Shown here piece by piece: positions 4,817 through 35,234 of a DNA stretch of 64,000 nt. The stretch is from NCBI GenBank assembly GCA_045119835.1, contig JBGVED010000040.1, positions 388 to 64,387 on the forward strand. The letters run 5' to 3'. The notes under the pieces are model-generated. The model ran no database searches. It had not been told where the DNA came from and worked only from the letters and a program-made list of their open reading frames with translations. Source of the DNA: Bacilli bacterium (GTDB taxonomy: Bacteria; Bacillota_I; Bacilli_A; RFN20; DUOF01). The first letter of the stretch is position 1; each line of letters starts with the position of its first letter. The position numbers and the translations under genes are program-made.

Positions 4817-4827
4817 ACTACCACTCC

Positions 4828-5298: not shown

Positions 5299-5379
5299 CT
5301 TAATTACCTCTTTTCATTTATTATTTAAAATAATTATACCATGTTGTAAGCAAAATTCAACAATTAATTACACAAAGCC

Positions 5380-5817
5380 CTAATTTTCAAGAGTCAAAGT
5401 AAATGGTCCATCATTAACAATATTTACTATCATATCTGCTCCAAATTCCCCTCTTTGGACCACAAAGCCATTACTTTTCAAACGTTCATTAAATAATTCA
5501 TATAATTTAATTGCTTTTTCCCTATTTGCTGATTTAGTAAAACTAGGCCTATTGCACCCATTTAAATCCGCACACAAAGTAAATTGAGAAATTGAAAGAA
5601 TACTACCGTCAACATCCTTTAAAGAAATATTTGTTTTACCAAATTCATCCTTAAAAACCCTAAGCTTAGAAATCTTATCGGCTAATTTTATCACTTTTTC
5701 CTCACTATCATCCTCAAAGACACCTACAAAAAGCAAATATCCCTTACCTATTTCTCCTATTATTTTACTATCAACTTCAACACTAGCTTTTCTTACAACC
5801 TGTAAAACAACTTTCAT
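5380..5817 (-). CDS. dtd: D-aminoacyl-tRNA deacylase
   Basis: The motifs SQFTL, NRPSF and GEFGADMIVNIVNDGPFTL are present and the length is about 145 aa. The start was moved to the MKVV ATG at 5817, which has the SD GGGGTG. Confidence 0.9.
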   Translation of the reverse strand: MKVVLQVVRKASVEVDSKIIGEIGKGYLLFVGVFEDDSEEKVIKLADKISKLRVFKDEFGKTNISLKDVDGSILSISQFTLCADLNGCNRPSFTKSANREKAIKLYELFNERLKSNGFVVQRGEFGADMIVNIVNDGPFTLTLEN

Positions 5818-5921
5818 CTTAAACACCCCATTTAAGTTTACTAATAACAATAATTATTTTCAATAAATAAATGACTAAATTAAAGTTTGCTATTATAATA
5901 AAGAAGATTGGAAGTGAATTT

Positions 5922-7184: not shown

Positions 7185-7197
7185 AAATAATTTCAAT

Positions 7198-7262
7198 AAA
7201 AAGCCTGCAAAAAAATGAAGTGAACCCCAAATAGTTCACAATACAAAAAGCAGGCTTTTTTA
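7198..7262. terminator. Bidirectional terminator between convergent rarA and spoVAF
   Basis: AAAAGCCTGC (7198-7208) pairs with GCAGGCTTTT (7250-7260). An inner hairpin gtgaac/gttcac is present, with A and T runs on both sides. Confidence 0.65.
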
Positions 7263-7265
7263 TAC

Positions 7266-8612: not shown

Positions 8613-8962
8613 GATTTAGGCTTAAAAATAAGAGCTACTAAAAATGCAAAAAGAATTGCACTAGTAATACCAGTCGCAGTCATATCAAATAACCCCGAAG
8701 CAACCCCAAGTAGCCCCTTTTCTCCTCTCATAGCCTCATTTGCTGCGTGCATTAAAGAATGCCCAAAACTAGTAATAGGTAAGCTTGCTCCAACTCGAGA
8801 AATACTAAGAATCTTATCATAAATACCAAAAACATCCAAAAAAGAACCAATAACAACAAACAAACTAGTAATATGCCCTGGAGTTAATTTACTATTATCA
8901 TAAATAATCTGTCCTATCGTACATATAGAGCCACACACAATAAACGCTAATAAATAACTCAT
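8609..8962 (-). CDS. spoVAEB: Stage V sporulation protein AEb
   Basis: The 117-aa product contains CGSICTIGQIIYD, LPITSFGHSL and ILFAFLVALIFKPK, all typical of SpoVAEb. Confidence 0.85.
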   Translation of the reverse strand: MSYLLAFIVCGSICTIGQIIYDNSKLTPGHITSLFVVIGSFLDVFGIYDKILSISRVGASLPITSFGHSLMHAANEAMRGEKGLLGVASGLFDMTATGITSAILFAFLVALIFKPKS

Positions 8963-9951
8963 TCAAGCACCTCCAAACTAACAGCATGAGCAATACATGG
9001 AATACTCTCTTTTTGCTGAATCAACGTAGGTGAAAGCAAAGCACCTGTCGCAACAACCAAAACCTTTTTAAACTCTTTTTTTCTCATCTTTTCTAAAATA
9101 TAACTATAAGTAGTAAGTGCACAACAAGCACACCCACTTCCCCCAGCAAAAACATTTTGATTTACTCTATCATAAATAATTAACCCACAATCATCATAAT
9201 TACTTAACCTAATATTATCCTTTTTAAATAATTCCAAAATAATTCTTTTACCATACGTAGACAAATCACCTGTAAGTATTAAATCATAATAATCGGGATC
9301 CCTATTTAAATCTTTAAAATGCTTTTTTAAAGTACTATATGCTGCCGGCGCCATTGCTACACCCATATTATTAGCATCACTAACTTCATAATCAGTAACT
9401 TCTCCAAATGTCGCACTAGTAACCTTAATATCACTTATAACATTACTAACAACAATAGCACCTGCTCCAGTTGCCGTATAAGTTGTGGTCTCTGGCTTTT
9501 GAATACCATATTCATTTGGATATCTATATTGTCTTTCTGCCGTTGCATTGTGAGATGAAGTAAAAGCAAGAGCTTTATTTGCAAAACCAGCCTCTACATA
9601 ACTTGAAGCCAACGCTAAAGTTAACATTGAAGAAGAACACGCTCCATACGTTCCAATAAGAGGTATCTTGTAGTCCCTTGAAACATAAGTAGATGAAGTA
9701 ATCTGATTTAATAAATCCCCTCCAAACATTATATCTATATCTTTATCATGTAATTTGCTCTTTTTTAACACCAAATCAATCGCTTCTTTTAACATCGTTT
9801 GCTCAGCCTTCTCAAACGTCTTACATCCACAATATAAATCATCATAAGTTTTATCATAATATTCCCCAAGAGGACCTTGCTTCTCAACTAACCCCGCTAC
9901 TGTCGCACTATTAGTCACATAAACATTATTAAAAATTATTGAATTAGACAC
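8959..9951 (-). CDS. spoVAD: Stage V sporulation protein AD (thiolase-like)
   Basis: The 330-aa product has thiolase-like motifs (GTYGACSS and AGGSGCACCA) and sits between spoVAC and spoVAEb. Confidence 0.85.
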   Translation of the reverse strand: MSNSIIFNNVYVTNSATVAGLVEKQGPLGEYYDKTYDDLYCGCKTFEKAEQTMLKEAIDLVLKKSKLHDKDIDIMFGGDLLNQITSSTYVSRDYKIPLIGTYGACSSSMLTLALASSYVEAGFANKALAFTSSHNATAERQYRYPNEYGIQKPETTTYTATGAGAIVVSNVISDIKVTSATFGEVTDYEVSDANNMGVAMAPAAYSTLKKHFKDLNRDPDYYDLILTGDLSTYGKRIILELFKKDNIRLSNYDDCGLIIYDRVNQNVFAGGSGCACCALTTYSYILEKMRKKEFKKVLVVATGALLSPTLIQQKESIPCIAHAVSLEVLE

Positions 9952-10412
9952 TATAAAGCACCTCCAATAACTAAAACAACATATCTAAGAATTCCTAAAA
10001 TATAAGCACTTACAATTCCATAAGTAATTACACTACCTGCAAGTTTAAACATATTAGAGCCAATACCATATATTAACCCTTCACTTTTACTCTCTAATGC
10101 ACTAGAAGTTAAAGCATTAGCAAAGCCCGATATTGGAATAAAAGTACCTGCACCTGTTTTTTGAGCTATTTTATCAAACAAACCAAAACCTGTTAAAACA
10201 GCAGTTATAAATATAATGGTAACTAACATTAAAGATATAGAGTCTTTTTCATTAATATAAAATCCTCTACTATATAAATCAAAAAACAATTGTCCAATTA
10301 TAGCTACTATTCCACCACTAAAAAAAGCAACTAAAGCTCTACCAAGTTTATCTTTCTTATCTTCCGTTTTCTTTACAATATCCTTAAATCTTTGCTTATT
10401 ATTCATATTCAT
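9951..10412 (-). CDS. spoVAC: Stage V sporulation protein AC
   Basis: The 153-aa product contains GGIVAIIGQLF, PISGFANALTSSALESKSEG and NMFKLAGSVI. Confidence 0.85.
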   Translation of the reverse strand: MNMNNKQRFKDIVKKTEDKKDKLGRALVAFFSGGIVAIIGQLFFDLYSRGFYINEKDSISLMLVTIIFITAVLTGFGLFDKIAQKTGAGTFIPISGFANALTSSALESKSEGLIYGIGSNMFKLAGSVITYGIVSAYILGILRYVVLVIGGAL

Positions 10413-10459
10413 TCTCCATTCTTTATTATTATTTGTAAGAATGAAAAATTAATTCATTA

Positions 10460-11146
10460 TTATAAAAGTGTAGAAATAAAATAAATAACCAACAAATGAA
10501 CTGGATAAAACATATAAAATAGATATTTTAAATTATATTTCCCTTTTTTACCATTATATATAACTAATAAAGGAACTGTTAAAAATAATCCATTAAAAAC
10601 AATAAAAGTTAAAATAGACTCACTAATAAATGTCCTATAAACTATATAAATCAAACTAATCAAACAATAACAAACTATTTTCAAGTTCTTACTATTACAA
10701 AAATAAAACATTAATATCATAACTAATGCAAATATCCCATAATCACAAAAGCAAACTAAAGAAAAACATAAAAAAACTAATAAAAGTCTATAAAAAATAT
10801 TTTTTATATCCACTAAAGCATATAAACACATAAACCCTAAAAACAAAGTAAAGATAATATTATAAAAATCAAACATAAAAACAGTTCCCACTTTATATAA
10901 AGAATAAGGAATTTGAGAAATAATAGCAAAAACAAGTAACCTCATACCATATTTAAATTTATTACTTGTAAATCTAAAACCATTTGCTATCCCCATAAAC
11001 ATAATAGGAGCGCAAACTCTCCCTATCATCCTAAAAATAATATATAAAGAAAGATTATTTCCTAAAAAACTTATCGCTACATGATCTAACACCATTGCAC
11101 TAATTGCAATAATCTTTAAAACATTACTATTTAAACATCTACTCAT
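10460..11146 (-). CDS. TraX-family integral membrane protein
   Basis: The N-terminus LKIIAISAMVLDHVA is characteristic of the TraX family. The protein is multi-TM and the gene overlaps the helD 3' end by 8 nt. Confidence 0.6.
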   Translation of the reverse strand: MSRCLNSNVLKIIAISAMVLDHVAISFLGNNLSLYIIFRMIGRVCAPIMFMGIANGFRFTSNKFKYGMRLLVFAIISQIPYSLYKVGTVFMFDFYNIIFTLFLGFMCLYALVDIKNIFYRLLLVFLCFSLVCFCDYGIFALVMILMFYFCNSKNLKIVCYCLISLIYIVYRTFISESILTFIVFNGLFLTVPLLVIYNGKKGKYNLKYLFYMFYPVHLLVIYFISTLL

Positions 11147-13142
11147 TTAAACCACCAACAAAACTAGTAAACAATCCATCACTTAAAATCTCTAATTCAT
11201 TAATTGCTCTACTACAAGCAATATAAAAATAATTCTTATCTATTTCACTACAATAATTTTTATCATTTGCACCAAAAACAACAACCTTATCAAACTCTAA
11301 ACCTTTAACTATACTTACCCCACTTACCACTACACCTTTTTTAATTTCTTTATTTTTCACATTTAAAAAAGATATATTAGTAAATCCTTCTAACTTTACA
11401 TACAACTTACTAGCCTTTTTCTGACTCTTGCAAATAATAGCCAAACTTTTACCCTTATAATTCTTGATTACATCTTTTAAATACGCAATTTCGTCATCCT
11501 CACTAGCAAACGATCTAAACTTTACTTCCTTACCTTCTCTTTTAACTCCGTTTATACCCTTACTAGAAATTATTTTTTCTAAAAATCTAAATATTTGAAT
11601 CGTAGATCTATAAGAATTATTAAGTTCTACTACTTTAAAATTATTAAAAACATCATCATAATTTTGCAAAAACAACTTCTGATTCAAATCTCCAACAAAA
11701 GTTTTACTACAATTAAAAGATAGTTGAATAACGCTTCTTTCAATCACATTTAAATCTTGATATTCATCTATAAGCAAATGATTATACTTATCAAATAACT
11801 TACACCCTCTAAAGAAAATCTTTACATAACACAATGGGAAAATATGTTCATATCCAATAATATTTCTCTTAATAACTTCACCATTATAACCAATAGTTTT
11901 TAAAAATTCATTATAGATTTCAAAACAGTTAACATCTGGCAATAACTTATTAACAAAAGTTTCAATAACGTCCACATCATTTTTACTCACTTTTTTCTCA
12001 TTACTAATTCTATCTTTTAAAAACTCTTTAATAAATCTTCTTCTCTCACTATAATTTCTTCTTTTGAATTTATTAAAATATAACTCTTTAAATAACTCAT
12101 TAGAAAAAGTCAATCCAGCTAATTTAAGCCCGATTTTTTCAGTAAACAACTCCGATAATTTATTATCTAAAAAAGTTTTCAAATTACAAAAAAAAGAATC
12201 ACTCTCAAACTCCTTTTTCCCATTAATTAAATTCTCTAAATAATCAATTTTATTTTCTACTCTAAGTTTATTCTTATATAAATCCATCTTCAAAATAGTA
12301 CGTGCGATCTCATTCATTGTCATATTAACAACATTTTCTTCTCCAAGTTCAGGTAAAACATTATCAATATATTTAAAAAACACCTCATTTGGAGTAATAA
12401 AACAAACTTTATTAGCCTCATATTTAACGCTATCTTTATAAACCAAATAAGCAATTCTATGTAACGCAATAGAAGTCTTACCACTACCAGCAACACCAAG
12501 AACTAGCAAATCATTATCACCAATATATCTAATAGCTTCATTTTGTTCTTTCTGAATTGTACTTACAATATTTTGCATAACTACATCACTATTTTTCCCT
12601 AGAACATCTAGTAACAATTCATCACTTATATTCATACCCATATCGACAAAACATTCAAGGTTGCCCTCATTAAATTTATATTGTCTTTTTAATGTGATTT
12701 CACCATCCACCTTGCCTTTAGGAGACTCATAACTGGATTTTCCTAAACTTCCTTCATAATACAAATTAGCAATCGGACTCCTCCAATCATTAACTATAAC
12801 TTCATTATTATCAATTAAAGTTTCAATTCCAAAATAATAAGGAAACTCTCCCCATTCATTTTTAAAATCAACACGCGAAAAATAAGGCTTTGACACCATC
12901 ATCAAATACCTATTAAGCTGCCTATTAGCCATATTATTTATTGCCCTATCATAATTTATATAATCAATCATTTGATTACCAGTCATATCAATACTAGATG
13001 AATCTTTTGCATTAAAAAAACTATTAAAAGTTTCACTAATTGCTTTACTCTTTTCTTTAATTAAATCTTTATTAGATGCAATTTTCTCTTTTAACATCTC
13101 AATTGTTTCATTTGCCTTTTTATACTCATCTATATTTATCAT
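11139..13142 (-). CDS. helD: HelD-type UvrD-like helicase (RNA polymerase recycling motor)
   Basis: An N-terminal coiled coil is followed by KPYFSRVDF, NDWRSPIANLYYEG, EITLKRQY and TIQKEQNEAIR. Walker A is GVAGSGKTSIALHRIAYL. A UvrD-like C-terminal domain is present. Confidence 0.75.
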   Translation of the reverse strand: MINIDEYKKANETIEMLKEKIASNKDLIKEKSKAISETFNSFFNAKDSSSIDMTGNQMIDYINYDRAINNMANRQLNRYLMMVSKPYFSRVDFKNEWGEFPYYFGIETLIDNNEVIVNDWRSPIANLYYEGSLGKSSYESPKGKVDGEITLKRQYKFNEGNLECFVDMGMNISDELLLDVLGKNSDVVMQNIVSTIQKEQNEAIRYIGDNDLLVLGVAGSGKTSIALHRIAYLVYKDSVKYEANKVCFITPNEVFFKYIDNVLPELGEENVVNMTMNEIARTILKMDLYKNKLRVENKIDYLENLINGKKEFESDSFFCNLKTFLDNKLSELFTEKIGLKLAGLTFSNELFKELYFNKFKRRNYSERRRFIKEFLKDRISNEKKVSKNDVDVIETFVNKLLPDVNCFEIYNEFLKTIGYNGEVIKRNIIGYEHIFPLCYVKIFFRGCKLFDKYNHLLIDEYQDLNVIERSVIQLSFNCSKTFVGDLNQKLFLQNYDDVFNNFKVVELNNSYRSTIQIFRFLEKIISSKGINGVKREGKEVKFRSFASEDDEIAYLKDVIKNYKGKSLAIICKSQKKASKLYVKLEGFTNISFLNVKNKEIKKGVVVSGVSIVKGLEFDKVVVFGANDKNYCSEIDKNYFYIACSRAINELEILSDGLFTSFVGGLNE

Positions 13143-13146
13143 AGTC

Positions 13147-13737
13147 CTATCCTCTATAATAACTTTCCTCTATTTCGCTAAACAAAATAGCGCCTTCTCT
13201 AATTAAAATAAGCTTATCTTCTTTTAATTCCACTATAGTAGACTCCTTTTCTACTAATTTATCACCCATTATAACCATATCAATTAAACCATCAAATTCA
13301 TCTATAATTTTTAAAATATCATTACTTGTCTTCTTACCACTAATATTCGCACTTGTAAGCATAAGTGGACGATCTAGTTTTTCTATTATTCTATTTATTA
13401 TCTCATTATTAATCATCCTAACTGCAACTGTTTCTTCACTATCTTTTCTTTTTAATACAAGCGTTAACTTACCTGGATAATATTTTTGTAACCTTCTTAA
13501 CTGTTCTTTATTTACATCACAAAGAGAAATTAACCTATCATAAGTGTCCACAACTAAAGGTAATTTTTTATTTAAATTTCTCTTCTTAATTTCATAAATC
13601 TTATTAAACGCCTTTTCACTACTACTATCTATAGCCAAACCATAAATAGTATCCGTAGGAACAACAATAATTCCATCATTTTTAAGAACCATCACAGCAT
13701 CATCAATTATTTTGTTATTGTAATCCTCTTTAGTCAT
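13147..13737 (-). CDS. tsaC: L-threonylcarbamoyladenylate synthase (YrdC/TsaC type, single domain)
   Basis: The product is 196 aa and contains IIVVPTDTIYGLA, VAVRM and LMLTSANISG. Confidence 0.8.
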   Translation of the reverse strand: MTKEDYNNKIIDDAVMVLKNDGIIVVPTDTIYGLAIDSSSEKAFNKIYEIKKRNLNKKLPLVVDTYDRLISLCDVNKEQLRRLQKYYPGKLTLVLKRKDSEETVAVRMINNEIINRIIEKLDRPLMLTSANISGKKTSNDILKIIDEFDGLIDMVIMGDKLVEKESTIVELKEDKLILIREGAILFSEIEESYYRG

Positions 13738-15836: not shown

Positions 15837-16772
15837 TTATAAATAAAAACTTTGATTATGCAAAGATTCATTAATTGAACTTCCAATAACATATGCTATA
15901 TTTTTAACATCTTCATCAATTTGTTTAGGGGTAACAACCATATTAAGTCCCCTTTGTTCTAAAACATCCGCTATTACCTGATACCTATTCCTATCTTTAA
16001 AAATAGAATGATTAAGCGGCAACTCGCCATACATTTTTTCAATTATATTTATCGTTTCATCAACTATACTACTAGCCCCAACAACCGTAGCTACACCTAT
16101 TGCAACACAAGGAGCACCTAAGTATTCTTCATCCATTGCCTTTCTATTATTACCAATACCACTACCAGGTTCAATTCCTGTATTACAAATTTGTATTACC
16201 TTATTAACACGCGTAATACTTCTTGAAGCAAGTGCATCAATAAAAATAACTAAATCAGGCTTATAAAAATTTGAAACTGACTTAACAATATCTGCAGTTT
16301 CCATTCCCGTTTGTCCCATAACTCCAGGAACTAGTAAAGAAACACATTTAGTTCCTTTTTTTATACTACCTGGATCAAACTCAAATATATGACTAGTAAC
16401 AATAACTTCTTTAGCGCTCATCGGTCCTAATGCATCTGCCATAAAGTTTTCATTCCCTAATCCTACAACTAAAATCTTTGAATCAGAATTCAATTTGTAC
16501 TTCAAAAACATTTCTTTTAAATTATCAACAAGAACATCAATTACATCATACCTACCTTTTTGATCTTCAATATTATCAAACTCAATAGAAACATAATCGC
16601 CCTTTTTCTTGTTAAAAGAATTATCTTCTTTATGTATCGTTATATAACTTATCTTTATTCCCTTATATTCTTTATTAACAACACTATACTCACTTGTATC
16701 ATTACTAGAAGTAACAATTTCATCTGCTAAATCACTACGAGGAGCAAATTTAGATAAATCTATTTCTTTCAT
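15837..16772 (-). CDS. gpr: Germination protease (GPR endopeptidase)
   Basis: VVGLGNENFMADALGP, IFIDALASRS and GIEPGSGIGN are present. The start was moved to the ATG at 16772, after AGGTGAGAATA. The track start is a GTG inside the SD. Confidence 0.88.
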   Translation of the reverse strand: MKEIDLSKFAPRSDLADEIVTSSNDTSEYSVVNKEYKGIKISYITIHKEDNSFNKKKGDYVSIEFDNIEDQKGRYDVIDVLVDNLKEMFLKYKLNSDSKILVVGLGNENFMADALGPMSAKEVIVTSHIFEFDPGSIKKGTKCVSLLVPGVMGQTGMETADIVKSVSNFYKPDLVIFIDALASRSITRVNKVIQICNTGIEPGSGIGNNRKAMDEEYLGAPCVAIGVATVVGASSIVDETINIIEKMYGELPLNHSIFKDRNRYQVIADVLEQRGLNMVVTPKQIDEDVKNIAYVIGSSINESLHNQSFYL

Positions 16773-16811
16773 TATTCTCACCTAAATTTAGTATTTCCTC
16801 TTTATTATATT

Positions 16812-17771
16812 TTATTTACAAGCATTTAATAAAAATAATTCAAAACCTACAAATTTATCTATTTGACCACTTTTTATCTTTATATCTAAATCAGATAATT
16901 CTTCTAATAAACCAGTTAAATCCATTTTATTTAAACGATAAACTTTTTCAAGGGCAACCTTTACTCTATAAGGATGACAAGAAAGCTCATTAGCAATATT
17001 ACTCTCACTATAACCTTTATCCTTTAAAACCATTACCTGATACATAAATCTAACTTGACTAGCAATTAAAGAAATTAAAGTAAGAGGCTCATTATTATTA
17101 ACCTTTAAATCATAGTAAATAGTAAAAACTTTATCTAATTTTTTAGAAAATATATAATCTATCATTTCAAAAACATTATCATCTAACTTTTTACAGACCA
17201 TTAAATCTACATCTTTAACATCTATTTCTTTTTTATAACAAGAAAGTTTTTCTATCTCATTATTTATTAAATACATATCATCGCCACATCTAACAATAAA
17301 CTCATTTAAAGCATCACTAGTAATACTAATCCCTTGCCTATCAAACATTTGCTTAACTACTCTAGGTAAATCTTTTTTGTTAATACTGTCTAAGGCATAT
17401 ATCTTTGATTTTTCTTTGATTTTTTTCACTAATGCACTCTTATCATCTAACTTTGGACTCACAACACTAAAAATAACAGTCGTAGAGTTATTTTCATTTT
17501 CTAAATACTCTTCAAGTTCATTAAAAGACTGGTCAAACTCTAATTTAGGATTTTCCGATGTTAAAAAATAACTATTTTTAATAACCACTACTTTTTTATC
17601 TGCCATAAAAGGTAATGTTGAAGCATCATTAACAATCTCATGTAAAGGAGTTTTATATCCATCAAAAAACACCAAATTAAAATCATCAATAACTTCTAAT
17701 TCACTTTTTGCTAATTTATCAATCATTTTATTAACAAGCAACTCTTGTTCACCAAAAACTAAATACATCAT
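16812..17771 (-). CDS. holA: DNA polymerase III subunit delta
   Basis: Size and position between comEC and gpr fit. The N-terminus YLVFGEQELL is HolA-like. The start was moved to the ATG at 17771, after AGAGGTG. Confidence 0.75.
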   Translation of the reverse strand: MMYLVFGEQELLVNKMIDKLAKSELEVIDDFNLVFFDGYKTPLHEIVNDASTLPFMADKKVVVIKNSYFLTSENPKLEFDQSFNELEEYLENENNSTTVIFSVVSPKLDDKSALVKKIKEKSKIYALDSINKKDLPRVVKQMFDRQGISITSDALNEFIVRCGDDMYLINNEIEKLSCYKKEIDVKDVDLMVCKKLDDNVFEMIDYIFSKKLDKVFTIYYDLKVNNNEPLTLISLIASQVRFMYQVMVLKDKGYSESNIANELSCHPYRVKVALEKVYRLNKMDLTGLLEELSDLDIKIKSGQIDKFVGFELFLLNACK

Positions 17772-17829
17772 TATCTTCACCTCTTAAATTATACTACATA
17801 TATTTTTTAAAAGACAACTTTACTTTATC

Positions 17830-19818
17830 TTATTTAAAATATTCAATAACATGTATCCCAAAATAACTCTTATAAAAACCAATATCATTATTCTCATCAG
17901 TCCTTAAAATGATATATCCAAGTTCATTTAATCTATTAACAACATCCTTATGAGGGTGCCTATAAATATTGTTCTTCCCAACACTAATAATAGCAAATTT
18001 TCCATTAATGCTTTTCAAAAATTCATAGCTACTAGAGGTATCACTCCCATGATGACCAATTTTAACAACATCAACACCATCTAATTTTTCTATAATTTTA
18101 TTTTCTATTTCTACCGATGCATCCCCCATTAAAAGAATATCATATCCAACATACTCACCATACAAAACAATACTTCCATCATTATCCCTATCCTCACTAA
18201 TATTTAAGTTTTTAAAATACTTTTCTCCTATATAAACCCCTTCAATTAAAGAGCTAGTAACAACACTTTCAACTAAAAAATTATCCTTTAAAGAAACATA
18301 AGCCCCCACATGATCAAAATCATCATGTGTCAAAATAACTTTTCTTATCTTATTAACACCATTACTCTCCAAAAAAGGAATTATTTCCTTCACAGCAACA
18401 TCTTTATACAAACTCCCTCCAGTATCAACAATAACAACCTCCTTACTATTAGGAATAAAAAACACACTACAATCTCCTTGACCAACATTTAAAAAATAAA
18501 ATTTCTCACCACCCATTAAAACAGGTTTGTAATACAAATACCCAAGCACACTAAACAACAATAAAAGAAAAATAAACCTTATCTTCCTTCTCCTTTCTTT
18601 AAAAATAAAGTAACCAACCAAAAATAAATAATATATTAAAACAATAACAACACTAGGCTTACCAAACACCAAAACCAAATTAAATTTATTTAAAACGTTA
18701 AAAAGTTTATAAAATAAACCTATAACAAATTCATACAACAAATAAAATTTATCCAAAAATAAATATATAAAAGAAAAAACATAAAGAAAAGAAATAGGTA
18801 AACTTAAAAATATCCCAAAAATAACTGTAAACACATTTAACTTATAATAACTAATAAGAAGCAAAGGTATATTAACTAAATAAATATAAATAGAAACAAT
18901 CATCTTTTTACACTTATAGAGCCTAAATATCTCTAAAACAAAACAAGATAAAAATGAAAATATAAAACTATAAGAAAAAATTATTGATGGATCCCTAATT
19001 ATAAAAACACTACCAATTAAACTTACTACTTCTAAATTAGACAAACTAAAACCGGCTTTCTTATTAAAAGATTTAAAAACATAACACAAAAAAGCTCTTA
19101 AACTAGAAATAGAGAAATCAAGCAAATATAAATAAAAGCAAACAAGACTAATCCCAATACAATTATTATGAAATAACTTCTTAAAAAATTTTAACAATAA
19201 ATTAATATGAAACCCAGAAACCGCTATTAAATAAGTTAAAGAATATAAAGAAAAATTATTATAAAAATCAAGATTACCTTCATCTTTATCATTAAATAAA
19301 ATTAATTTTAAATAACTTTTAGATTTTTCACTTTTATTCTCCAGCAATCTATAAACGATTTCAATATTTAAACTAACACTAGAGTCTAAAATTACTAATT
19401 CATAAACCTCAATTTCATAATTAATATTCTTTTTATTAAGATAGTTATAAAAATCATTATAACTTCCTCTAATATCCTTAACTTCTCCCTTTATTAAAAT
19501 CTTATTACCTTTATTAAAATTTTCCTTTCCATTGTAAACAACATATTTATACTCACCATCACTAACAATGCTATAATTATCGTAACTTTCAATAACCTCA
19601 AAATCCTTTACGAACTCACCAATTATAATATTTGATTTATAAAAATTTATATTAAAAGTTAAAAACAAAGAAATAGCCAAACAACATAAAATATACAATT
19701 TAAAACATACTCTTTTGCCCAACAAACACAAAAACAATAACAAAAACACTAAATAAACATAATTATGATAATAAATAAACAAACCACCAAAAACTAAACA
19801 CAAAAAAAGATAAAACAT
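17830..19818 (-). CDS. comEC: DNA internalization competence protein ComEC/Rec2
   Basis: A polytopic membrane region is followed by a C-terminal metallo-beta-lactamase domain (LNVGQGDC, THDDFDHVG, GHHGS). The gene lies directly after comEA. Confidence 0.85.
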   Translation of the reverse strand: MFYLFLCLVFGGLFIYYHNYVYLVFLLLFLCLLGKRVCFKLYILCCLAISLFLTFNINFYKSNIIIGEFVKDFEVIESYDNYSIVSDGEYKYVVYNGKENFNKGNKILIKGEVKDIRGSYNDFYNYLNKKNINYEIEVYELVILDSSVSLNIEIVYRLLENKSEKSKSYLKLILFNDKDEGNLDFYNNFSLYSLTYLIAVSGFHINLLLKFFKKLFHNNCIGISLVCFYLYLLDFSISSLRAFLCYVFKSFNKKAGFSLSNLEVVSLIGSVFIIRDPSIIFSYSFIFSFLSCFVLEIFRLYKCKKMIVSIYIYLVNIPLLLISYYKLNVFTVIFGIFLSLPISFLYVFSFIYLFLDKFYLLYEFVIGLFYKLFNVLNKFNLVLVFGKPSVVIVLIYYLFLVGYFIFKERRRKIRFIFLLLLFSVLGYLYYKPVLMGGEKFYFLNVGQGDCSVFFIPNSKEVVIVDTGGSLYKDVAVKEIIPFLESNGVNKIRKVILTHDDFDHVGAYVSLKDNFLVESVVTSSLIEGVYIGEKYFKNLNISEDRDNDGSIVLYGEYVGYDILLMGDASVEIENKIIEKLDGVDVVKIGHHGSDTSSSYEFLKSINGKFAIISVGKNNIYRHPHKDVVNRLNELGYIILRTDENNDIGFYKSYFGIHVIEYFK

Positions 19819-28786: not shown

Positions 28787-29059
28787 TTACATTCCAAAGT
28801 TATTTGTGTTCATTCCAATATTAGTATTTCCTGCATTTCCAGGACATTGTGTTTCTTGATCTGTAGTGTGTTGATAATAATATCTATTAACAGGTACATA
28901 TCTATTTACTACATGTGTATGACTAGGGCAAATAACTGGTTGCTCTATTGGAAAACATCTTACAATGGTACTAGTTCTACAAGGCATAACAATTGGCTCT
29001 AATGGTGGACAAGTATTGTTGTTTCCGCAACCACAACCCATATTCATATTTTGATTCAT
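28787..29059 (-). CDS. CotD-family spore coat protein-like
   Basis: The 90-aa product is Cys/Pro/His/Asn-rich: GCGCGNNNTCPPLEPIVMPCRT..VICPSHTHVVNRYVPVNRYYYQHT. This resembles the CotD repeats of P.V.P..H.H. A GGAGG SD and a SigK-like promoter lie upstream. Confidence 0.6.
   Translation of the reverse strand: MNQNMNMGCGCGNNNTCPPLEPIVMPCRTSTIVRCFPIEQPVICPSHTHVVNRYVPVNRYYYQHTTDQETQCPGNAGNTNIGMNTNNFGM
28842..28941 (-). repeat. Direct repeat copy B (inside the intact cotD-like gene)
   Basis: See copy A. The two copies are spaced 1022 bp apart. Confidence 0.85.
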
Positions 29060-29162: not shown

Positions 29163-30104
29163 ATGGTGAAAGCAATGAAAAAATACAACACTATAATTTC
29201 CATATTCTTCTTGATATTCTTAATATATTCTTTACTAAATATAAATGAGATAAGAAACTCAACACTAAATATACTTATGACATTTTCAAAAACAATATTC
29301 CCTTCTTTATTACCATTTCTAATAATTAATCAAATAATCATAAGTTTAGGACTTATTGATTTATTGTCATATTTTCTTCAATATATAAGCATACCTTTAT
29401 TTAAAATAAGTGGAAAAGGAGCCAGTATAATTATAATTGGAATTTTAAACGGTTTTCCAAGCAGTGCCATTTTCACTTCTATTATGCTAACAAATAAACA
29501 AATAGAAAAAAAAGAAGCTCAAAGACTAATAAACGCTATCTTCTTTCCATCAATCAGTTTTCTCTTTTCTATATTATTACCTAATATAAATAACAATAAA
29601 CTATTCACACTTCTAATATTATCAATATACATGAGTGGATTTATTATCCTTTATATTTCCTCATTTAAAATTTGTTCTCCCCAAATAATAACCTTTAAAC
29701 AAACATTAAATAATACCAAAAATAAACTCAATAATTTCTCGCTTCCATTAAAATTAAAAGAAATCATAAATTATTCCTTTAATACCCTGTTAAATATCTT
29801 AGGAATTATTGTAATATTTTCAATTCCCTGCAACATTATAAATAAAATTTTAACTAACAACATCTCATATCTATTTAAAGGGTTAATAGAATTCTCAATA
29901 CCATCAATAACATTATCCCTATCATCTTTAAATAAAAAAACGATAGTACTCTTCTTAAGTACTATCCTCTCTTTCTCCTCACTATCTTCTATTATGCAAG
30001 CAACAATTTTTATAAATGAAGCTTCTTTAAACAGTAAACAATTTATTACTAATAGAATCATAATCACTCTATTAAGTGTTTTTTTATTGTATTTAATTAT
30101 TTAA
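29163..30104 (+). CDS. ylbJ: Sporulation integral membrane protein YlbJ-like (nucleoside-recognition/Gate domain)
   Basis: TIFPSLLPFLIINQIII, PLFKISGKGASIIIIGILNGFPSSA. It is oriented opposite to ylbF, as in Bacillus. The start could instead be the ATG at 29175. Confidence 0.65.
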   Translation: MVKAMKKYNTIISIFFLIFLIYSLLNINEIRNSTLNILMTFSKTIFPSLLPFLIINQIIISLGLIDLLSYFLQYISIPLFKISGKGASIIIIGILNGFPSSAIFTSIMLTNKQIEKKEAQRLINAIFFPSISFLFSILLPNINNNKLFTLLILSIYMSGFIILYISSFKICSPQIITFKQTLNNTKNKLNNFSLPLKLKEIINYSFNTLLNILGIIVIFSIPCNIINKILTNNISYLFKGLIEFSIPSITLSLSSLNKKTIVLFLSTILSFSSLSSIMQATIFINEASLNSKQFITNRIIITLLSVFLLYLII

Positions 30105-30435
30105 TGTCTTCAAAAATACACTCTTCTACACATTTTAATTGAGCCTTCATTTTTTTATACGCCAAATTATAAGCTTTAACAAAACTATTTTCATCTAACT
30201 GGTATTTAACTTCACTAAGTTTTTTTTGAACTAAAGAAACATCACTACCATATTTTTCAAATCGTTTTACTTGACTATACTCCTCTTTTAAACTATCAAA
30301 TAAAAGCAAAAGTTTACTGACCTCTTGATTTTCTAACATTTTCTTTTCTTTTTCCTTCATATCCAAATATAATTCGCTTTTTAAAATAGTTTCTTTTAAT
30401 TTAAATGTAGTTGACAAAATATCACTATAATCCAT
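30097..30435 (-). CDS. YlbF/YmcA/YheA-family (UPF0342) regulatory protein-like
   Basis: The product is 112 aa and helical. It fits the family pattern of the I..S..Y..... region, followed by F..LKEEY and a C-terminal helix. Synteny with ylbD, ylbE and ylbJ supports the call. Confidence 0.55.
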   Translation of the reverse strand: MDYSDILSTTFKLKETILKSELYLDMKEKEKKMLENQEVSKLLLLFDSLKEEYSQVKRFEKYGSDVSLVQKKLSEVKYQLDENSFVKAYNLAYKKMKAQLKCVEECIFEDIK

Positions 30436-30465
30436 TAATATCGCCTCTTTATTTATTATAACATT

Positions 30466-32175
30466 TTATTTATTTTTTTTACCCTTATTATAATAAAGAT
30501 TATATAGATTATCATTTATTTTTTCTATAATACCTTCAACTTCTTCTTCTACATCTTTTTCATCTATTTTAAGAAAAAAAGCAATTTCATCATTACTACT
30601 TTTAACAAAACTATCCAATCCATAATACATAGCTAACACCTTTTCTTCTTTTTTATTTAAAAAAGACATAGCCTTCTTAACTTTAACCTTATCTTTAGTC
30701 ATAAGTTCACTTAAAAAAGCATCCATATTTTTTTTCTTCTTATTTAAGAATTCTAAATTTGTTAAATTATCATCCATATCCTTTTCTATATCTTCAACAA
30801 TTAACCCAATACTTAAAGGATCAATATCTAAATTTCTAGCAATTTCATCTATTTCTTGCTCCTTATATCCCAAAAGGCCATAATACCTAACAATTATTTC
30901 TTTTTCTTCTCTAGATAAAACATCTAAATAACTTTTAAAATTATCTAAATCATATTTTAAAGATTTATCATTAAATTTTCCCTCATCTATTATATCTTTT
31001 ATTCTTTTTACACTAAAATCTAAAATTCTATCTAAAGAATCATCATCAATATTATATTTAGAACAAATTTTTTCCCTACTTAAAACTTTATAACCATTAA
31101 ATCCATAACTTTCTTTTAAAATTTCCTGATGCATTAAACTAAACTTAACAAGCACTTTTTCTACCAAATCTTTTTCATAACCAGAAAAATCTTTAAAAAA
31201 TCTTCTTTTCATACTAATTTCATTTGGATGCTTAAGTAAAAATTTCAACTTTTCACTATCTCTTCTTATGCTAAAACTTACCCATGAGACTGAAACATCT
31301 AAAATCTTTGCTATATCTTTCATTTCCGTGCAATTATAGCCATTAATACCATAATATCTAGATATTATTTCCTTTCTTTTTTCTCCAAAAGTATCCAAAG
31401 TTGAATTTATCTCTTCTAAACTATAATTTCCAAAAAGTTCATAAAAGAGAACATTATTTCTATTAAATTTATTAATTTTATCGACTGTTTTTTTTATGTT
31501 TCTAATACATTCATTAATCATTTTTCTAGCTTCACTATAATTAACATTAAAACTTTTAGTAACCCTATAAAAAAGATCATTAACACTGCTACACTCATAA
31601 TAAATATCAATAATCTTTTTATCTCTAATATTTAAATAATTATCTACAATATGCAAACTTTCAGCAAACTCAGCTAAAGAATCTTGAAAAATATTCATAT
31701 CATTTAAAATATTAACAAGCCTTTCGTTTCCATAAATTAAAGTTGAATTAACTGTATTTATATCAACACCACATTCAATAGCAATATCTTTCATATCCAT
31801 CTCATCATTACCATTTAGCCCATAATAAAGCTCTAAAACTTTCTTACATCTAGCTGTCAAATACCCAAGCGTTCTAAAAACATCTTGAGTATTATATTTG
31901 CTATACATTTTATAAAACATCTCATTATTACTATATATACCATTAGGGTTAACAAGAATATTAGCAATTTTATCTACACAAGATTGTCTTTTATGTCGAA
32001 CACCAGAAGCAGTGATTCCATATTTTTCTACAAGTTCTTCTATTTTTAATCTATTAAATCCTCTTACACCATAATACTGACAAATAAACTCTCTATCATT
32101 TTTTCTTAACCTTTCAACTGCTAAATCAATTTTTTCTCTATCGTACCCGTCAAACAAGTCATAAAATTCACTCAT
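30466..32175 (-). CDS. Protein made of seven tandem sigma-70 region-4-like HTH modules (no sigma region 2)
   Basis: Repeat units start at about aa 4, 87, 168, 244, 326, 413 and 487. The recurrent core is L..L....R...I...YYG[LIV].G....[ST]..EIA......S...V. The YYG motif occurs as QYYGV, LYYGL, IYYEC (degenerate), RYYGI, ESYGF, RYYGL and MYYGL. The SD AAGGAGT is present. Confidence 0.75.
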   Translation of the reverse strand: MSEFYDLFDGYDREKIDLAVERLRKNDREFICQYYGVRGFNRLKIEELVEKYGITASGVRHKRQSCVDKIANILVNPNGIYSNNEMFYKMYSKYNTQDVFRTLGYLTARCKKVLELYYGLNGNDEMDMKDIAIECGVDINTVNSTLIYGNERLVNILNDMNIFQDSLAEFAESLHIVDNYLNIRDKKIIDIYYECSSVNDLFYRVTKSFNVNYSEARKMINECIRNIKKTVDKINKFNRNNVLFYELFGNYSLEEINSTLDTFGEKRKEIISRYYGINGYNCTEMKDIAKILDVSVSWVSFSIRRDSEKLKFLLKHPNEISMKRRFFKDFSGYEKDLVEKVLVKFSLMHQEILKESYGFNGYKVLSREKICSKYNIDDDSLDRILDFSVKRIKDIIDEGKFNDKSLKYDLDNFKSYLDVLSREEKEIIVRYYGLLGYKEQEIDEIARNLDIDPLSIGLIVEDIEKDMDDNLTNLEFLNKKKKNMDAFLSELMTKDKVKVKKAMSFLNKKEEKVLAMYYGLDSFVKSSNDEIAFFLKIDEKDVEEEVEGIIEKINDNLYNLYYNKGKKNK

Positions 32176-32237
32176 ATAACACTACTCCTTAACTACAAAC
32201 AATTATAATACAACTAATACAACTAATAAACACTTTT

Positions 32238-32453
32238 TTACTCCTCCATCATCGTTGAAACAAGGGTAAGTAAATTAGAGGCATCTTCCACCTTATCAAT
32301 AAATCTTTTTCTTCTAACAATTTTATACTCCTGTAAAAAGTCCTTTATTTTATTCCTATCAACACTTAATATTCTATACCAATAAGTCCTCTCTCTTAAA
32401 AAATGCCAATAATCAGGATTTTTATCCAAAATAAAAATTATATCATTTTTCAT
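32238..32453 (-). CDS. ylbE: YlbE-like small protein
   Basis: The product is 71 aa. HFLRERTYWYRILS resembles the YlbE FLRE.P.WYR.LSR core. The gene lies directly after the ylbD-like gene with a 1-nt overlap. Confidence 0.55.
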   Translation of the reverse strand: MKNDIIFILDKNPDYWHFLRERTYWYRILSVDRNKIKDFLQEYKIVRRKRFIDKVEDASNLLTLVSTMMEE

Positions 32454-32803
32454 TAGTCATCATATCCCCTTGGTGCTTTATACGAAGTTCGTCTACCATT
32501 TACTTTAGAATCTTCTTTTTTACCAAACTCTCCTAATACCCCTAAAATTTTTTTCATTCCTTCCAAATTCTCATTAATCTTATCCAAATTTACTCCCTCA
32601 AGCATCTTAAGTAAACTATTGGAGCTATTTCTTGTTTGCGTAGATGTTGTATTTTCTTTTTTTTCTTTGAAAACATCTGCTTCCTTTCCAAATAAATCAT
32701 AAGTTTCATATAAACTTTGCCAAGTAGTCTCCTTCTTATCTACTCTCTCTTTTAAAAAAGGTTTATCCTTTATAAATTCTTTAAATTCATCTAGTTTATC
32801 CAT
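32453..32803 (-). CDS. ylbD: YlbD-like putative spore coat protein
   Basis: FKEFIKDKPFLKERVDKKETTWQSLYETYDLFGKE matches the YlbD N-terminal pattern FKEFVKKHP.L...V..G..TWQ..YE.W.L.GE. Confidence 0.55.
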   Translation of the reverse strand: MDKLDEFKEFIKDKPFLKERVDKKETTWQSLYETYDLFGKEADVFKEKKENTTSTQTRNSSNSLLKMLEGVNLDKINENLEGMKKILGVLGEFGKKEDSKVNGRRTSYKAPRGYDD

Positions 32804-32951
32804 TTATAATCACCCATTAAAGTATATGCTTTAAATTTTATCCTAGTGATATTTTATTTAGTTATATAATTTTCAAAGATTCTTTTTTCTACAGCAATAT
32901 AAAACATCAAATAATGTTTTTGTTTTTATAAAAATTAAAAACACATTTTTA

Positions 32952-34961
32952 TTATCTCTTATTTATTGCTAAATTTTGTTTGATTATTTCTATAAGTTCA
33001 CAAATTTTTTTATCTACAATATCTTCGCTCACGTTAAATTTCTCACTAATTTCTAATCTAGACATAACATCCACACCATTTAAACCATAATATAAACTTA
33101 TTAATTTTAAGTCCCTTTCATTTAAATCCCTCATAGCTTTTTTCACTGCTATTATATCTGTGCAATCAACATCAACCAAAAAACGTTGATTCATATTTTT
33201 TAAAATACCTTTTTTAATCAATATAATATTTTTATTCAATGTTTCAGAAATAATAGACTTATAAGAATGATATTTTTTAGCAATATATTCTACTCCCTTT
33301 GATTCCCCTTTTAGGCCATAATACATAACAATAATATCAAAACTTTTTACGTTTAAGCCCATCATACCTTCTCTTATTTGTTTTGCAGAAAAACCTCTAA
33401 ACAAATTATAGAATTCTTCCTTATTTGACCCTTTGTTAGCATCAGGAGAAATTAAAAATTTCTCAATTTTTTTCATCCTACTATCTATATAATAATAAAC
33501 ATGCGATTCATCCATATAAAATCTACTAGCAATCTCCTTCATCGTCAAGCATTCCATTCCCAACCCATAATACAAAGATAAAATTCTCTTATCATAATAT
33601 TCTAATTTATTAAATGCCTTATCAACTTCCTCTTTAGAATAATTTTCAAATCTTTTATAAAAACCTTTTTTACTAATACTTCTTTTTAAAGAAGGATCCT
33701 TTAAAATATTAGAAATAACTTCCATTTTTCTCTTTATTAATCCACTAACAGATGAATAACCTAAATAATATTTACTAGCCAATTGATGAATATCCAACAA
33801 CTCATCCTCAAATCCATAATAATAACGAATTATCTCCATATCCCTCTTTTTCAAATCAAGCAAGGCACTATCAATTTCTTCTTTTGAATAGCCATCAAAA
33901 CTTTTATAAAATTCTTCTTGCATTTCCCTTTTTTTATCCTCTGGAGATTTAAGAAGTTCTTTTAATTTATCTAAATCCGCTTTCATTATTTGATTAATTC
34001 TAGATCTAGTTAAATCATATTTTTTGCCAATAGCATCCATAGTTAAAACACAACAACCAAGTCCATAATAAGATTTAAATATATCCTGCCTTCTTTTATC
34101 TAAATTTGTTAAAGCTTGATTAACTTGCTCCTCACTACAACCTTCAAACATACTATAAAATTCTTTTTTTCTTTCTTCTTCTTTTTTTTCTTTTTTTAAA
34201 ATCTTGGAAATTTTCAATATTGCATTATCAACTATTTCATGAATCATAGAAATGTCTACGCTATATTTTTCAGCAATCTCACTAGCAGTAAAACTATCAC
34301 CCTTCAAACCATAAAAATAATTTAATATATCTTGTATTTTTGAATTCAACCCCAAAACACATTCATCAATTTCCTCTTTTGAAAAGCCTTTAAACTTAGC
34401 ATAAAAATATTGTGGAGCATAAACAATCTCTTTTTCATTCCTTTTATTATTTAAATGCCTTTCAAAAATTTTCAATCCATTTTTCAAGTAATTATAAACA
34501 GTATGATATTTTATATCATATTTATAGCTAATATCTACAGGTCGTAAACATTCTCTGCCTATACCATAATAAGAAAGTATAACCTCCTTACCTAACCCCT
34601 CCATTTTATCAAAAGCATTATTAATTTCTTCTAAAGAATAATTTTTATACTTGTCAAAAAATTCTTCTTTTCTATCCACTACTACAGAAACTTTTTTCTT
34701 TTCACCTAGTAGTTCATCTATTTTATTCATACAAAAAGACAAATGATAGTGAACATTGTAAGTTTCACGATTAGACTTAAGAGAAATTTCTTTAACAGAT
34801 AATTTTTCTCCGCCAATTCCAAAATACAAACACATTATTTCTCTGTTTTGAGGAGATAATTTTTCAATACAATCATACACTTTTTCCTTCCCATACTTAG
34901 CTATAAGAGAATTATATCTTTCAAAATGTATACTTAAATCATTATTTTCGTTTTCCTTCAT
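32952..34961 (-). CDS. Protein made of eight tandem sigma-70 region-4-like HTH modules (no sigma region 2)
   Basis: Repeat units start at aa 13, 101, 186, 268, 351, 434, 517 and 594, with a period of 77-88 aa. An example is FYSMFEGCSEEQVNQALTNLDKRRQDIFKSYYGLGCCVLTMDAIGKKYDLTRSRINQIMKADLDKLKELL. The SD GAGGTGA is present. Confidence 0.75.
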   Translation of the reverse strand: MKENENNDLSIHFERYNSLIAKYGKEKVYDCIEKLSPQNREIMCLYFGIGGEKLSVKEISLKSNRETYNVHYHLSFCMNKIDELLGEKKKVSVVVDRKEEFFDKYKNYSLEEINNAFDKMEGLGKEVILSYYGIGRECLRPVDISYKYDIKYHTVYNYLKNGLKIFERHLNNKRNEKEIVYAPQYFYAKFKGFSKEEIDECVLGLNSKIQDILNYFYGLKGDSFTASEIAEKYSVDISMIHEIVDNAILKISKILKKEKKEEERKKEFYSMFEGCSEEQVNQALTNLDKRRQDIFKSYYGLGCCVLTMDAIGKKYDLTRSRINQIMKADLDKLKELLKSPEDKKREMQEEFYKSFDGYSKEEIDSALLDLKKRDMEIIRYYYGFEDELLDIHQLASKYYLGYSSVSGLIKRKMEVISNILKDPSLKRSISKKGFYKRFENYSKEEVDKAFNKLEYYDKRILSLYYGLGMECLTMKEIASRFYMDESHVYYYIDSRMKKIEKFLISPDANKGSNKEEFYNLFRGFSAKQIREGMMGLNVKSFDIIVMYYGLKGESKGVEYIAKKYHSYKSIISETLNKNIILIKKGILKNMNQRFLVDVDCTDIIAVKKAMRDLNERDLKLISLYYGLNGVDVMSRLEISEKFNVSEDIVDKKICELIEIIKQNLAINKR

Positions 34962-34990
34962 AACTTCACCTCAAAACCTAACTGCAAATT

Positions 34991-35019
34991 ATTATAAAAC
35001 AACAAAAATAAATGAACAA
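34991..35019 (-). promoter_or_regulatory. Candidate SigA-type promoter for the 8-module gene
   Basis: The minus strand reads TTGTTC, 17 nt, TATAAT. It lies about 30 nt upstream of the SD. Confidence 0.45.
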
Positions 35020-35099: not shown

Positions 35100-35234
35100 A
35101 CACGAGGTTGCAAAGCAACTAATACACACATTAGTAGGTAGTTTTCTCTAGTGCTTCTAGGCAAAGGTGCCAAATTAGAAGTGGGAAAATGGTGACTAAT
35201 GGAGGGCAAAACAAAAGAAGGAGGACTTTACTAA

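Follow-up and report, generated by a model that had tools for sequence, protein, structure and literature searches.

Tandem arrays of sigma region 4 modules interleaved with the ylbD-ylbE-ylbF genes of a Bacilli bacterium: a lineage-specific insertion and a tentative case for σ4 mimicry

What purpose might be served by a protein that consists of region 4 of a primary sigma factor repeated seven or eight times, and why should two genes for such proteins stand among genes associated with sporulation? The question is raised by a 64,000-nt stretch of DNA from a Bacilli bacterium (GenBank assembly GCA_045119835.1, contig JBGVED010000040.1, positions 388 to 64,387 of the forward strand), referred to here as the window, in which two minus-strand array genes, A8 with eight sigma region 4 (σ4) modules and B7 with seven, alternate with homologs of ylbD, ylbE and ylbF. 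A8 lies between rpsB and ylbD (slot 1) and B7 between ylbE and ylbF (slot 2). The analysis described here indicates that the arrays are a lineage-specific insertion in one sub-clade of uncultured gut Bacilli with sporulation genes and do not belong to the core of the ylb module. It leads to the proposal, which we favour tentatively and rate as somewhat short of probable, that the array proteins are multivalent mimics or adaptors of σ4 whose targets are the proteins that dock on σ4, not promoters.

The 15 modules of the two arrays align over ~83 residues (FY..F.gYs.EEi..a...L....r.II..YYGL.G..lt..EIA.ky.vs.s.V......kI...L), each being equivalent to a complete SigA-type region 4 (4.1-4.2) with ~15 extra N-terminal residues, which form one additional helix (FY..F.GYS). 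The best profile matches in the PDB are to region 4 of primary sigma factors, with module positions 16-73 corresponding to residues 300-358 of the SigA chain in 7ckq. An AlphaFold2 model of a single module comprises five helices (predicted local distance difference test score, pLDDT, of 86), and the top 50 Foldseek matches to this model are all sigma region 4, mostly from primary sigma factors, the best of them having root mean square deviations of 1.5-2 Å over ~57-60 residues at ~33% identity. Module counts obtained by motif counting agree with those from a hidden Markov model (HMM) built from the modules, and since modules make up 97-100% of the length of both proteins there is no room for another domain. 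Pfam and NCBIfam matches are to region 4 only (PF04545, the region 4 helix-turn-helix (HTH), scores 88.9 bits for A8 and 56.4 bits for B7 against a cutoff of 24.1) and sigma region 2 (PF04542) is absent from both proteins, indicating that neither is a functional, promoter-melting sigma factor. Genes of this type are likely to be annotated as 'sigma-70 family RNA polymerase sigma factor' by virtue of TIGR02937-type matches, a label that the absence of region 2 renders functionally wrong. In the full-length AlphaFold2 model of A8 the modules are well folded (pLDDT 81), the linkers are disordered and the predicted template modelling score (pTM) is 0.33; as modelled, the array proteins have the appearance of a string of beads and not of a solenoid. 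The modules are mutually 12-33% identical (median within-array identity 23-33%), Tandem Repeats Finder (TRF) detected no module repeats at the DNA level in the window, and the modules are old. The sole pair with 79% identity, in related locus L019, and the 52% pairs of the largest arrays are signs that modules have now and then been duplicated recently.

The residues of σ70 that contact the -35 element (R584, E585, R586, R588, Q589, R562 etc., in the numbering of E. coli σ70) were mapped onto the 15-module alignment. Structural core positions, namely the equivalents of G564, I587 and L598, are kept across modules. The R584 equivalent is Arg or Lys in two of the 15 modules and the R588 equivalent is Arg in two, with Arg at the R586 position and Gln at the Q589 position retained in one module each. 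Only module A4 (TRSRINQ) keeps the equivalents of R584, R586 and Q589 together, the -35-reading residues having been lost from the other 14, and 13 modules have Tyr in place of the phosphate/backbone contact R562. The net charge of the recognition helix ranges from +5 to -7 across modules, with values of -6, -7 and -2 in modules B6, B7 and A8; the last two modules of the slot-2 array are therefore equipped with strongly acidic recognition helices. The isoelectric point (pI) of the whole protein is 8.6 for the slot-1 array and 5.6 for the slot-2 array.

It is the loss of the -35-reading residues from 14 modules, the acidic nature of several recognition helices and the strict retention of the σ4 fold that argue for a protein-binding mimic. 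Arrays of this kind would bind proteins that normally dock on region 4 of σA, candidate partners being the β-flap tip of RNA polymerase (RNAP) or σ4-targeting activators and regulators of the anti-sigma type, and would modulate transcription via such partners without reading promoters themselves. The Foldseek matches include σ4 complexes with WhiB1/3/6/7, phage G1 ORF67 and λ cI, partners that illustrate the status of σ4 as a known docking hub, which is counted in favour of the proposal.

The wider family provides a further link to RNAP. A word-indexed search of 5.8 billion proteins returned just six other relatives of A8 and four of B7, and when 1.84 billion cluster representatives were searched exhaustively with the module profile, the yield was 71 proteins at E<=1e-30 or 296 at E<=1e-10, the richest of which had 18 modules matched. 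Many of these relatives have ~135 N-terminal residues that match Sigma70_r2, and σ2 or regions r1.2-r2-r3 are fused ahead of 4-12 modules in proteins P0048, P0022, P0054, P0072, P0096 and P0152. In P0048, r1.2-r2-r3-r4 are followed by ~12 modules, P0022 has additional TPR repeats, and P0054 and P0072 combine σ2 with 4-6 modules. These heads connect the modules with RNAP-binding sigma factors, and because family members carry them the arrays probably arose from sigma factors through repeated duplication of σ4, the window genes being headless. A variant repeat (TIYEYFEGYTKEEID..L.KL......LI.LRFGEDL..P), which has the N-terminal half of the module without the HTH half, was also observed in P0007, P0066, P0097, P0100, P0142 and P0048, in the last of which it comes after the complete r1.2-r2-r3-r4 sigma factor. 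Literature searches found no publication on tandem, multiple or decoy σ4 proteins, poly-σ4 proteins are not described in a paper on how sigma factors of the extracytoplasmic function (ECF) type evolved, and no decoy made of σ4 copies is known to us; the poly-σ4-only family is apparently rare and undescribed. An affiliation with defence systems or phages was considered and rejected, since PADLOC and PHROGs gave generic σ4-level matches only. The same applies to MzaA of the MZA anti-phage system, to which the match was 61.8 bits against a cutoff of 800 over a single σ4 stretch (NF041931) and 21.6 bits at the domain level (PADLOC).

The arrangement of arrays among ylb genes is not a one-off. Array genes occupy slots 1 and 2 in seven genomes, the window and six others, and the choice of slots is the same even between arrays that share just 21-28% identity. 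The eight and seven modules of the window recur in L003, with eight in slot 1 and seven in slot 2, and L021 has 15 and four. L002 has a slot-1 gene with eight modules plus a giant one with at least 21 (positions 3395-9235, plus strand, 1,946 aa), followed by eight modules in slot 2. Contig edges limit the counts in L004, with at least two modules in slot 1 and eight in slot 2, and in L005, where slot 1 holds a partial open reading frame (ORF) at the contig start with at least one module and a gene with 12, of which the 1,027-aa product as called includes 11, and slot 2 at least five. Slot 2 is empty in L019, slot 1 of which contains a second giant gene with 18 modules (8001-13169, plus strand, 1,722 aa), home to the 79%-identical pair, plus two genes in which one and four modules were detected. 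Across the seven loci the number of modules ranges from 0 to 21 or more per gene, and that of array genes from one to three per slot. Module-by-module comparison revealed that slot-1 genes finish in a terminal module of the A8 type, that slot-2 genes, including those of L003, L004 and L005, hold the order B1, B2 ... B5 ... B7 at just 25-45% identity, and that orthologs P0002-P0004 are collinear with the A8 protein, module for module. Since slot-specific module order has been kept, both slots are ancestral to the array-bearing sub-clade.

Array sequences have diverged at several times the pace of the genes on either side. YlbD is 76-87% and YlbE 72-89% identical among array-bearing loci (YlbD 75-87% across the close group of array-bearing and array-less loci), compared with 51-68% for close array orthologs and 21-28% for the slot homologs in L002, L004 and L005. 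Nor does array divergence follow that of the neighbourhood: L003, the nearest relative by flanking genes (76-97% identical, including YlbJ at 87% and an HTH protein at 97%), has an A8 ortholog that is just 51% identical, whereas L002, more distant by those genes (51-96%), has one with 63% identity, which suggests either lineage-specific acceleration or recombination of arrays. The ORFs have stayed intact over 569-1,946 aa in DNA of ~27% GC, arguing for selection on coding.

Scans for YlbD in GTDB genomes and for YlbE in metagenomes identified 17 loci with contiguous ylbD-ylbE(-ylbF) and no array, from metagenome-assembled genomes (MAGs) of uncultured gut 'Bacilli' or Erysipelotrichaceae. Three of these (L007-L009) share an rpsB | ylbDEF | ylbJ | small ORF | HTH neighbourhood and are as near to the window organism as are the array-bearing L002, L004 and L005; identities to the window in L007-L009 versus L002 are 75-78% versus 77% for YlbD, 63-65% versus 64% for YlbJ and 92-94% versus 96% for RpsB. 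The original prediction, which placed the arrays in a sporulation or developmental regulatory module, had named their absence from close relatives that keep the ylb cluster, combined with a lack of co-expression, as what would speak against it; of these two, absence is what was found in the 17 loci. A neighbour-joining tree of concatenated YlbD, YlbE, YlbF and YlbJ (612 aa) united the array-bearers in one clade in 60% of bootstraps, weak support for a topology in keeping with arrays having been gained once. Arrays also occur away from ylb genes, in L006, L023 (a σ2-headed member) and L029/L030. Slot 1 accepts other insertions too, as seen in array-less L007 and L008, where the ~910 nt between rpsB and ylbD contain, at about 9300-9900, an unrelated ORF of ~190-200 aa on the minus strand. 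One ylbD-ylbE locus, L015 (CAZPLK010000001.1), belongs to a MAG labelled 'uncultured Muribaculaceae bacterium' (Bacteroidota); its homologs are typical of Bacilli and the contig is probably mis-binned or mislabelled.

The features of the window are collected in Table 1. Gene order, intergenic gaps, the overlap between ylbD and ylbE and the module counts of the original prediction were borne out to the base by coordinates, motif counts and the HMM, and a module HMM scan detected no further array ORFs in the 64 kb. The calls of ylbD, ylbE and ylbF homologs also stood, the profile searches named beforehand as their test all scoring above cutoff: PF14071 (YlbD_coat) at 47.2 bits against a gathering cutoff of 27, PF14003 (YlbE) at 30.7 against 27, and PF06133 (Com_YlbF; YlbF/YmcA/YheA) at 44.5 against 23.9 with a full-length alignment. 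The ylbJ call is a weaker one, in that the match to TIGR02871 is highly significant and near full-length (E=6e-29, residues 10-312) and the convergent position is kept in nearly all related loci, but the score of 101.2 bits is below the equivalog cutoff of 304.65. No support was obtained for a cotD-like coat gene next door, since CotD (PF11122), although the sole Pfam family listed for that small ORF, scored 11.3 bits against a cutoff of 22 (E=0.53). Homologs of the ORF lie beside ylbJ in L003, L004, L007-L009, L019, L021 and L026-L028.

Table 1 Features of the window (positions are those of the 64,000-nt stretch; promoter entries are candidates)
Feature	Position	Strand	Details
Slot-1 array gene (A8)	32952..34961	-	669 aa; eight ~83-aa SigA-region-4 modules; no sigma region 2
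A8 modules, first four	34686-34934, 34431-34679, 34179-34424, 33930-34178	-	
A8 modules, last four	33681-33929, 33432-33680, 33201-33431, 32955-33200	-	
Slot-2 array gene (B7)	30466..32175	-	569 aa; seven modules
ylbD-like gene	32453..32803	-	116 aa; putative outer spore-coat protein family; 148-nt gap to A8 gene
ylbE-like gene	32238..32453	-	71 aa; 1 nt shared with ylbD; 62-nt gap to B7 gene
ylbF/yheA-like gene	30097..30435	-	112 aa; Com_YlbF member; 30-nt gap to B7 gene
ylbJ-like gene	29163..30104	+	integral membrane protein; convergent with ylbF, 8-nt tail overlap
Small Cys/Asn-rich ORF	28787..29059	-	90 aa; adjoins ylbJ; 'cotD-like' in the original prediction
Candidate σA-type promoter of slot-1 array	34991..35019	-	TTGTTC-17 nt-TATAAT, A-tract before
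Candidate promoter region of slot-2 array	32202..32224	-	TATAAT ~30 nt before ATG
Putative σK-like promoter of ylbD-ylbE	32818..32850	-	AC (32847-32846), 17 nt, CATATACT (32828-32821); between slot-1 array and ylbD
Putative extended -10 element before ylbF	30455..30463	-	TGTTATAAT, i.e. TGnTATAAT
Terminator-like hairpin and T-run	29942..29966	-	~130 nt past ylbF stop, inside ylbJ 3' end
GerXA-like germination protein	7266-8612	-	
SpoVAD	8959-9951	-	
HelD-like RNAP recycling motor	11139-13142	-	349 bits, under cutoff of 419
GPR spore protease	15837-16781	-	
holA	16812-17780	-	
ComEC	17830-19818	-	

Transcription signals were sought by comparison across loci, a scan for consensus promoters being uninformative in this AT-rich region (49 promoter-like matches against a shuffled expectation of 48.8). 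The SigA-like promoter ascribed to the eight-module gene in the original prediction is present as a sequence and insignificant as a single match, its -35 element agreeing with TTGACA at only three of six positions. Its conservation in L002, and as TTGTTT-17-TATAAT in L019, makes it credible, and the promoter is probably real. At slot 2, the window, L003, L002, L004 and L005 have a TATAAT in a common position, such that each array is associated with its own conserved σA-like TATAAT signal, in slot 1 with an A-tract and TTGTT(C/T) at 17-nt spacing. A perfect 9-bp direct repeat (AGTTGTATT x2, minus strand, 32206-32228) identified by TRF overlaps the spacer of the putative slot-2 promoter and could be an operator or a product of chance; L003 has one copy only. 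On the other side of A8, a sub-threshold match to Rfam t44 (RF00127), the rpsB leader, was observed before rpsB at 35107-35211 on the plus strand (31.4 bits against a gathering score of 44, E=0.0013). This t44-like block is highly conserved in L002, L007-L009, L019 and L021 and fills most of the rpsB-A8 intergenic region, leaving ~145 nt for the array promoter.

The ylb genes have signals of their own. Of 21 loci in which the sequence upstream of ylbD is readable, 20 have the motif gCATAnnnTa with constant spacing to the start codon (L010 deviates). They are array-bearing and array-less alike and extend down to 36% YlbD identity, and in the close group the motif takes the form AC-17 nt-CATATACTTTA. 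Mother-cell promoters have a -10 element common to σE and σK, with a -35 'AC' for σK (PMC3789822), and the ylbD upstream element, as a sequence, fits the mother-cell (σK-like) type, which is in keeping with the identification of YlbD among the outer coat proteins (PMC7725329). From the conservation of the element, ylbD-ylbE are predicted to be expressed in the mother cell across the whole of this uncultured group. Similarly, TGnTATAAT before ylbF is clear in the window, L003, L002, L004, L019 and array-less L007/L008 and less clear in L009; the L021 extract ends before this region. Both of these ancestral promoters, σK-like for ylbD and extended -10 for ylbF, sit downstream of the arrays in array-bearing genomes, and judging from these signals the ylb transcription units do not include the arrays. 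An operon in which one promoter serves the arrays and ylbD, ylbE and ylbF was accordingly downgraded, given that ylbD and ylbF keep conserved promoters of their own. The hairpin and T-run in Table 1 is the sole intrinsic-terminator-like site predicted downstream of the five-gene block.

Among the sporulation genes of the organism, the window encodes SpoVAD (471 bits against a cutoff of 402), the GPR endopeptidase (300 against 120) and a GerXA-like protein. ylbJ is under σE control (PMC517825) and is present in all spore-formers according to Galperin et al., who recorded ylbD and ylbE in 'most bacilli, no clostridia' (PMC3533761). The function of RicF requires the C-terminal [4Fe-4S]-ligating cysteines C134 and C146 (PMC6751060). 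The YlbF-like protein of the window has no C-terminal Cys-rich tail, and its two cysteines (KCVEEC) are unconserved among 18 orthologs in a 19-sequence alignment. From its sequence, the protein is a Com_YlbF member and the positional ylbF, not demonstrably RicF; it resembles the Cys-less YheA-like branch of PF06133. The argument in the original prediction that YlbF-family proteins control entry into sporulation is weakened by the lack of RicF cysteines.

How firmly, then, can the proposal that the arrays are σ4 mimics be held? Several observations weigh against it. Module A4 has a σ70-like TRxRIxQ recognition helix, the A8 protein is basic overall (pI 8.6) and the R554 and K597 equivalents are often basic (nine of 15 modules each), on account of which some DNA binding by the arrays remains plausible. 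Identity between orthologs is 0.44 at exposed recognition-helix positions, just slightly below the 0.53 at other variable positions, and 0.74 at core positions, and the variability of the recognition helix gives a clear signature of neither a conserved interface nor diversifying selection. The promoter assignments are sequence footprints from cross-locus comparison, and read-through from the array promoters into ylbD, ylbE and ylbF is possible, since no intrinsic terminator is predicted ahead of that past ylbF. The first of these points are shared by an account in which the arrays are multi-HTH DNA-binding proteins, each module reading its own non-TTGACA element, with long composite sites or an architectural or nucleoid-coating role, possibly in the sporangium. 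The module fold is after all that of a DNA-binding HTH, A4 does keep its R584, R586 and Q589 equivalents, each module's identity goes with its position and is kept across orthologs, and the recognition helices of A1, A2, A4, B2 and B4 are conserved between orthologs at 0.62-0.90. Such a role is nonetheless rather unlikely in view of the negatively charged helices of B6, B7 and A8 and the acidity of the B7 protein, the substitution of the R562 backbone contact by Tyr in all but two modules, the lack of a predicted rigid superhelix (pTM 0.33) and the failure of TRF to detect any repeated DNA target nearby other than the two-copy 9-mer. A split or modular sigma factor, whereby the arrays would lend σ4 domains with several -35 specificities to a separate σ2 partner in the manner of SigO-RsoA, could draw on the relatives in which σ2 or r1.2-r2-r3 is fused before 4-12 modules, but no σ2-only gene adjoins the arrays in any of the seven loci and most modules have no basic recognition helix, rendering this idea improbable.

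That the arrays are a functional, co-expressed part of a sporulation or developmental module with ylbD, ylbE, ylbF and ylbJ is unlikely, although this could overlap with other readings. Use of the same two slots in seven genomes despite extreme array divergence, the sporulation genes of the organism, and co-orientation with ylbD, ylbE and ylbF across gaps of 23-148 nt with no predicted terminator before 29942-29966 are all in its favour, the first two being the points on which the original prediction is supported. Set against these are the 17 relatives with a ylb cluster and no arrays, array promoters that are σA-like as opposed to σE/K-like, the downstream promoters retained by ylbD and ylbF, the empty slot 2 of L019, arrays that occur elsewhere without ylb genes and the absence of RicF cysteines from the YlbF-like protein; the link between arrays and sporulation is so far only positional. 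Largely functionless, self-expanding repeat ORFs drifting in permissive intergenic sites might also be expected to diverge rapidly, vary in copy number, split and fuse within slots and be patchily distributed, as the arrays are. Such drift appears highly improbable given that ORFs of up to 1,946 aa have stayed open at ~27% GC, that the fold core is conserved in every module, and that module order is kept at 25-45% identity along with promoter and ribosome-binding site. The σ4 mimic proposal could be taken further, with poly-σ4 proteins forming a new class of transcription modulators, i.e. multivalent decoys, built from the σ4 of the housekeeping sigma factor, that titrate or cluster dockers such as the RNAP β-flap, Spo0A-type activators and anti-sigma or phage proteins, their rapid diversification module by module and their changes in copy number reflecting an arms race or fast rewiring of regulation in spore-forming gut Bacilli, and the σ2-headed relatives serving as 'multi-headed' sigma factors; this larger scheme is speculative and decidedly unlikely as it stands.

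Region 4 is among the best-studied of bacterial regulatory surfaces, yet the literature searches yielded no account of proteins built solely from multiple σ4 copies. If the arrays are indeed σ4 mimics, they would add a novel level of control over transcription, and their variants would be a ready-made set of orthogonal σ4 tools from nature. In any event, the locus provides a natural experiment, with close genomes that have zero, one, two or three array genes in defined slots beside a coat operon with a conserved σK-type promoter footprint.

Comparison with the B. subtilis ylbD-ylbE-ylbF/ylbJ region reveals the same families in the same order, with a ylbJ-like gene nearby on the opposite strand and a mother-cell-type element upstream of ylbD. 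The window differs in having arrays before ylbD and between ylbE and ylbF, in the directly convergent orientation of ylbJ on ylbF, and in a YlbF-like protein of 112 aa without the Fe-S cysteines of B. subtilis RicF. As regards the arrays themselves, the modules share with region 4 of SigA/RpoD an alignment throughout 4.1-4.2, the same fold and the structural core residues. The arrays, however, repeat this domain seven to eight times (21 or more in relatives) without regions 1-3, and the modules add the N-terminal helix (FY..F.GYS) and, in 14 of 15 cases, are without the -35-reading residues. The poly-σ4-tailed sigma factors P0048, P0054 and P0072 have the same type of module in tandem, including the N-terminal FY..F.GY(S/T)KEE, but possess a genuine RNAP-binding σ2 head and could act as sigma factors, unlike the headless proteins of the window, and their genomic context differs (L023). 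Regulators of the GerE/LuxR and YlxM/UPF0122 types likewise have a σ4-like HTH without σ2, and weak Pfam cross-matches to GerE and UPF0122 were recorded. These are single-domain DNA-binding dimers, in contrast to the seven to eight divergent domains per chain of the arrays, which mostly lack basic helices and are nearest to SigA, not GerE, in module sequence. DNA-reading arrays of the TALE type consist of near-identical repeats in a rigid superhelix, whereas the modules of the window are 12-33% identical with no fixed geometry (pTM 0.33). Finally, AsiA, Rsd, WhiB-family proteins, phage G1 ORF67, λ cI and Spo0A all act on σ4, in the same regulatory layer that a σ4 mimic would have; the difference is that those proteins bind σ4, whereas the arrays themselves are σ4.

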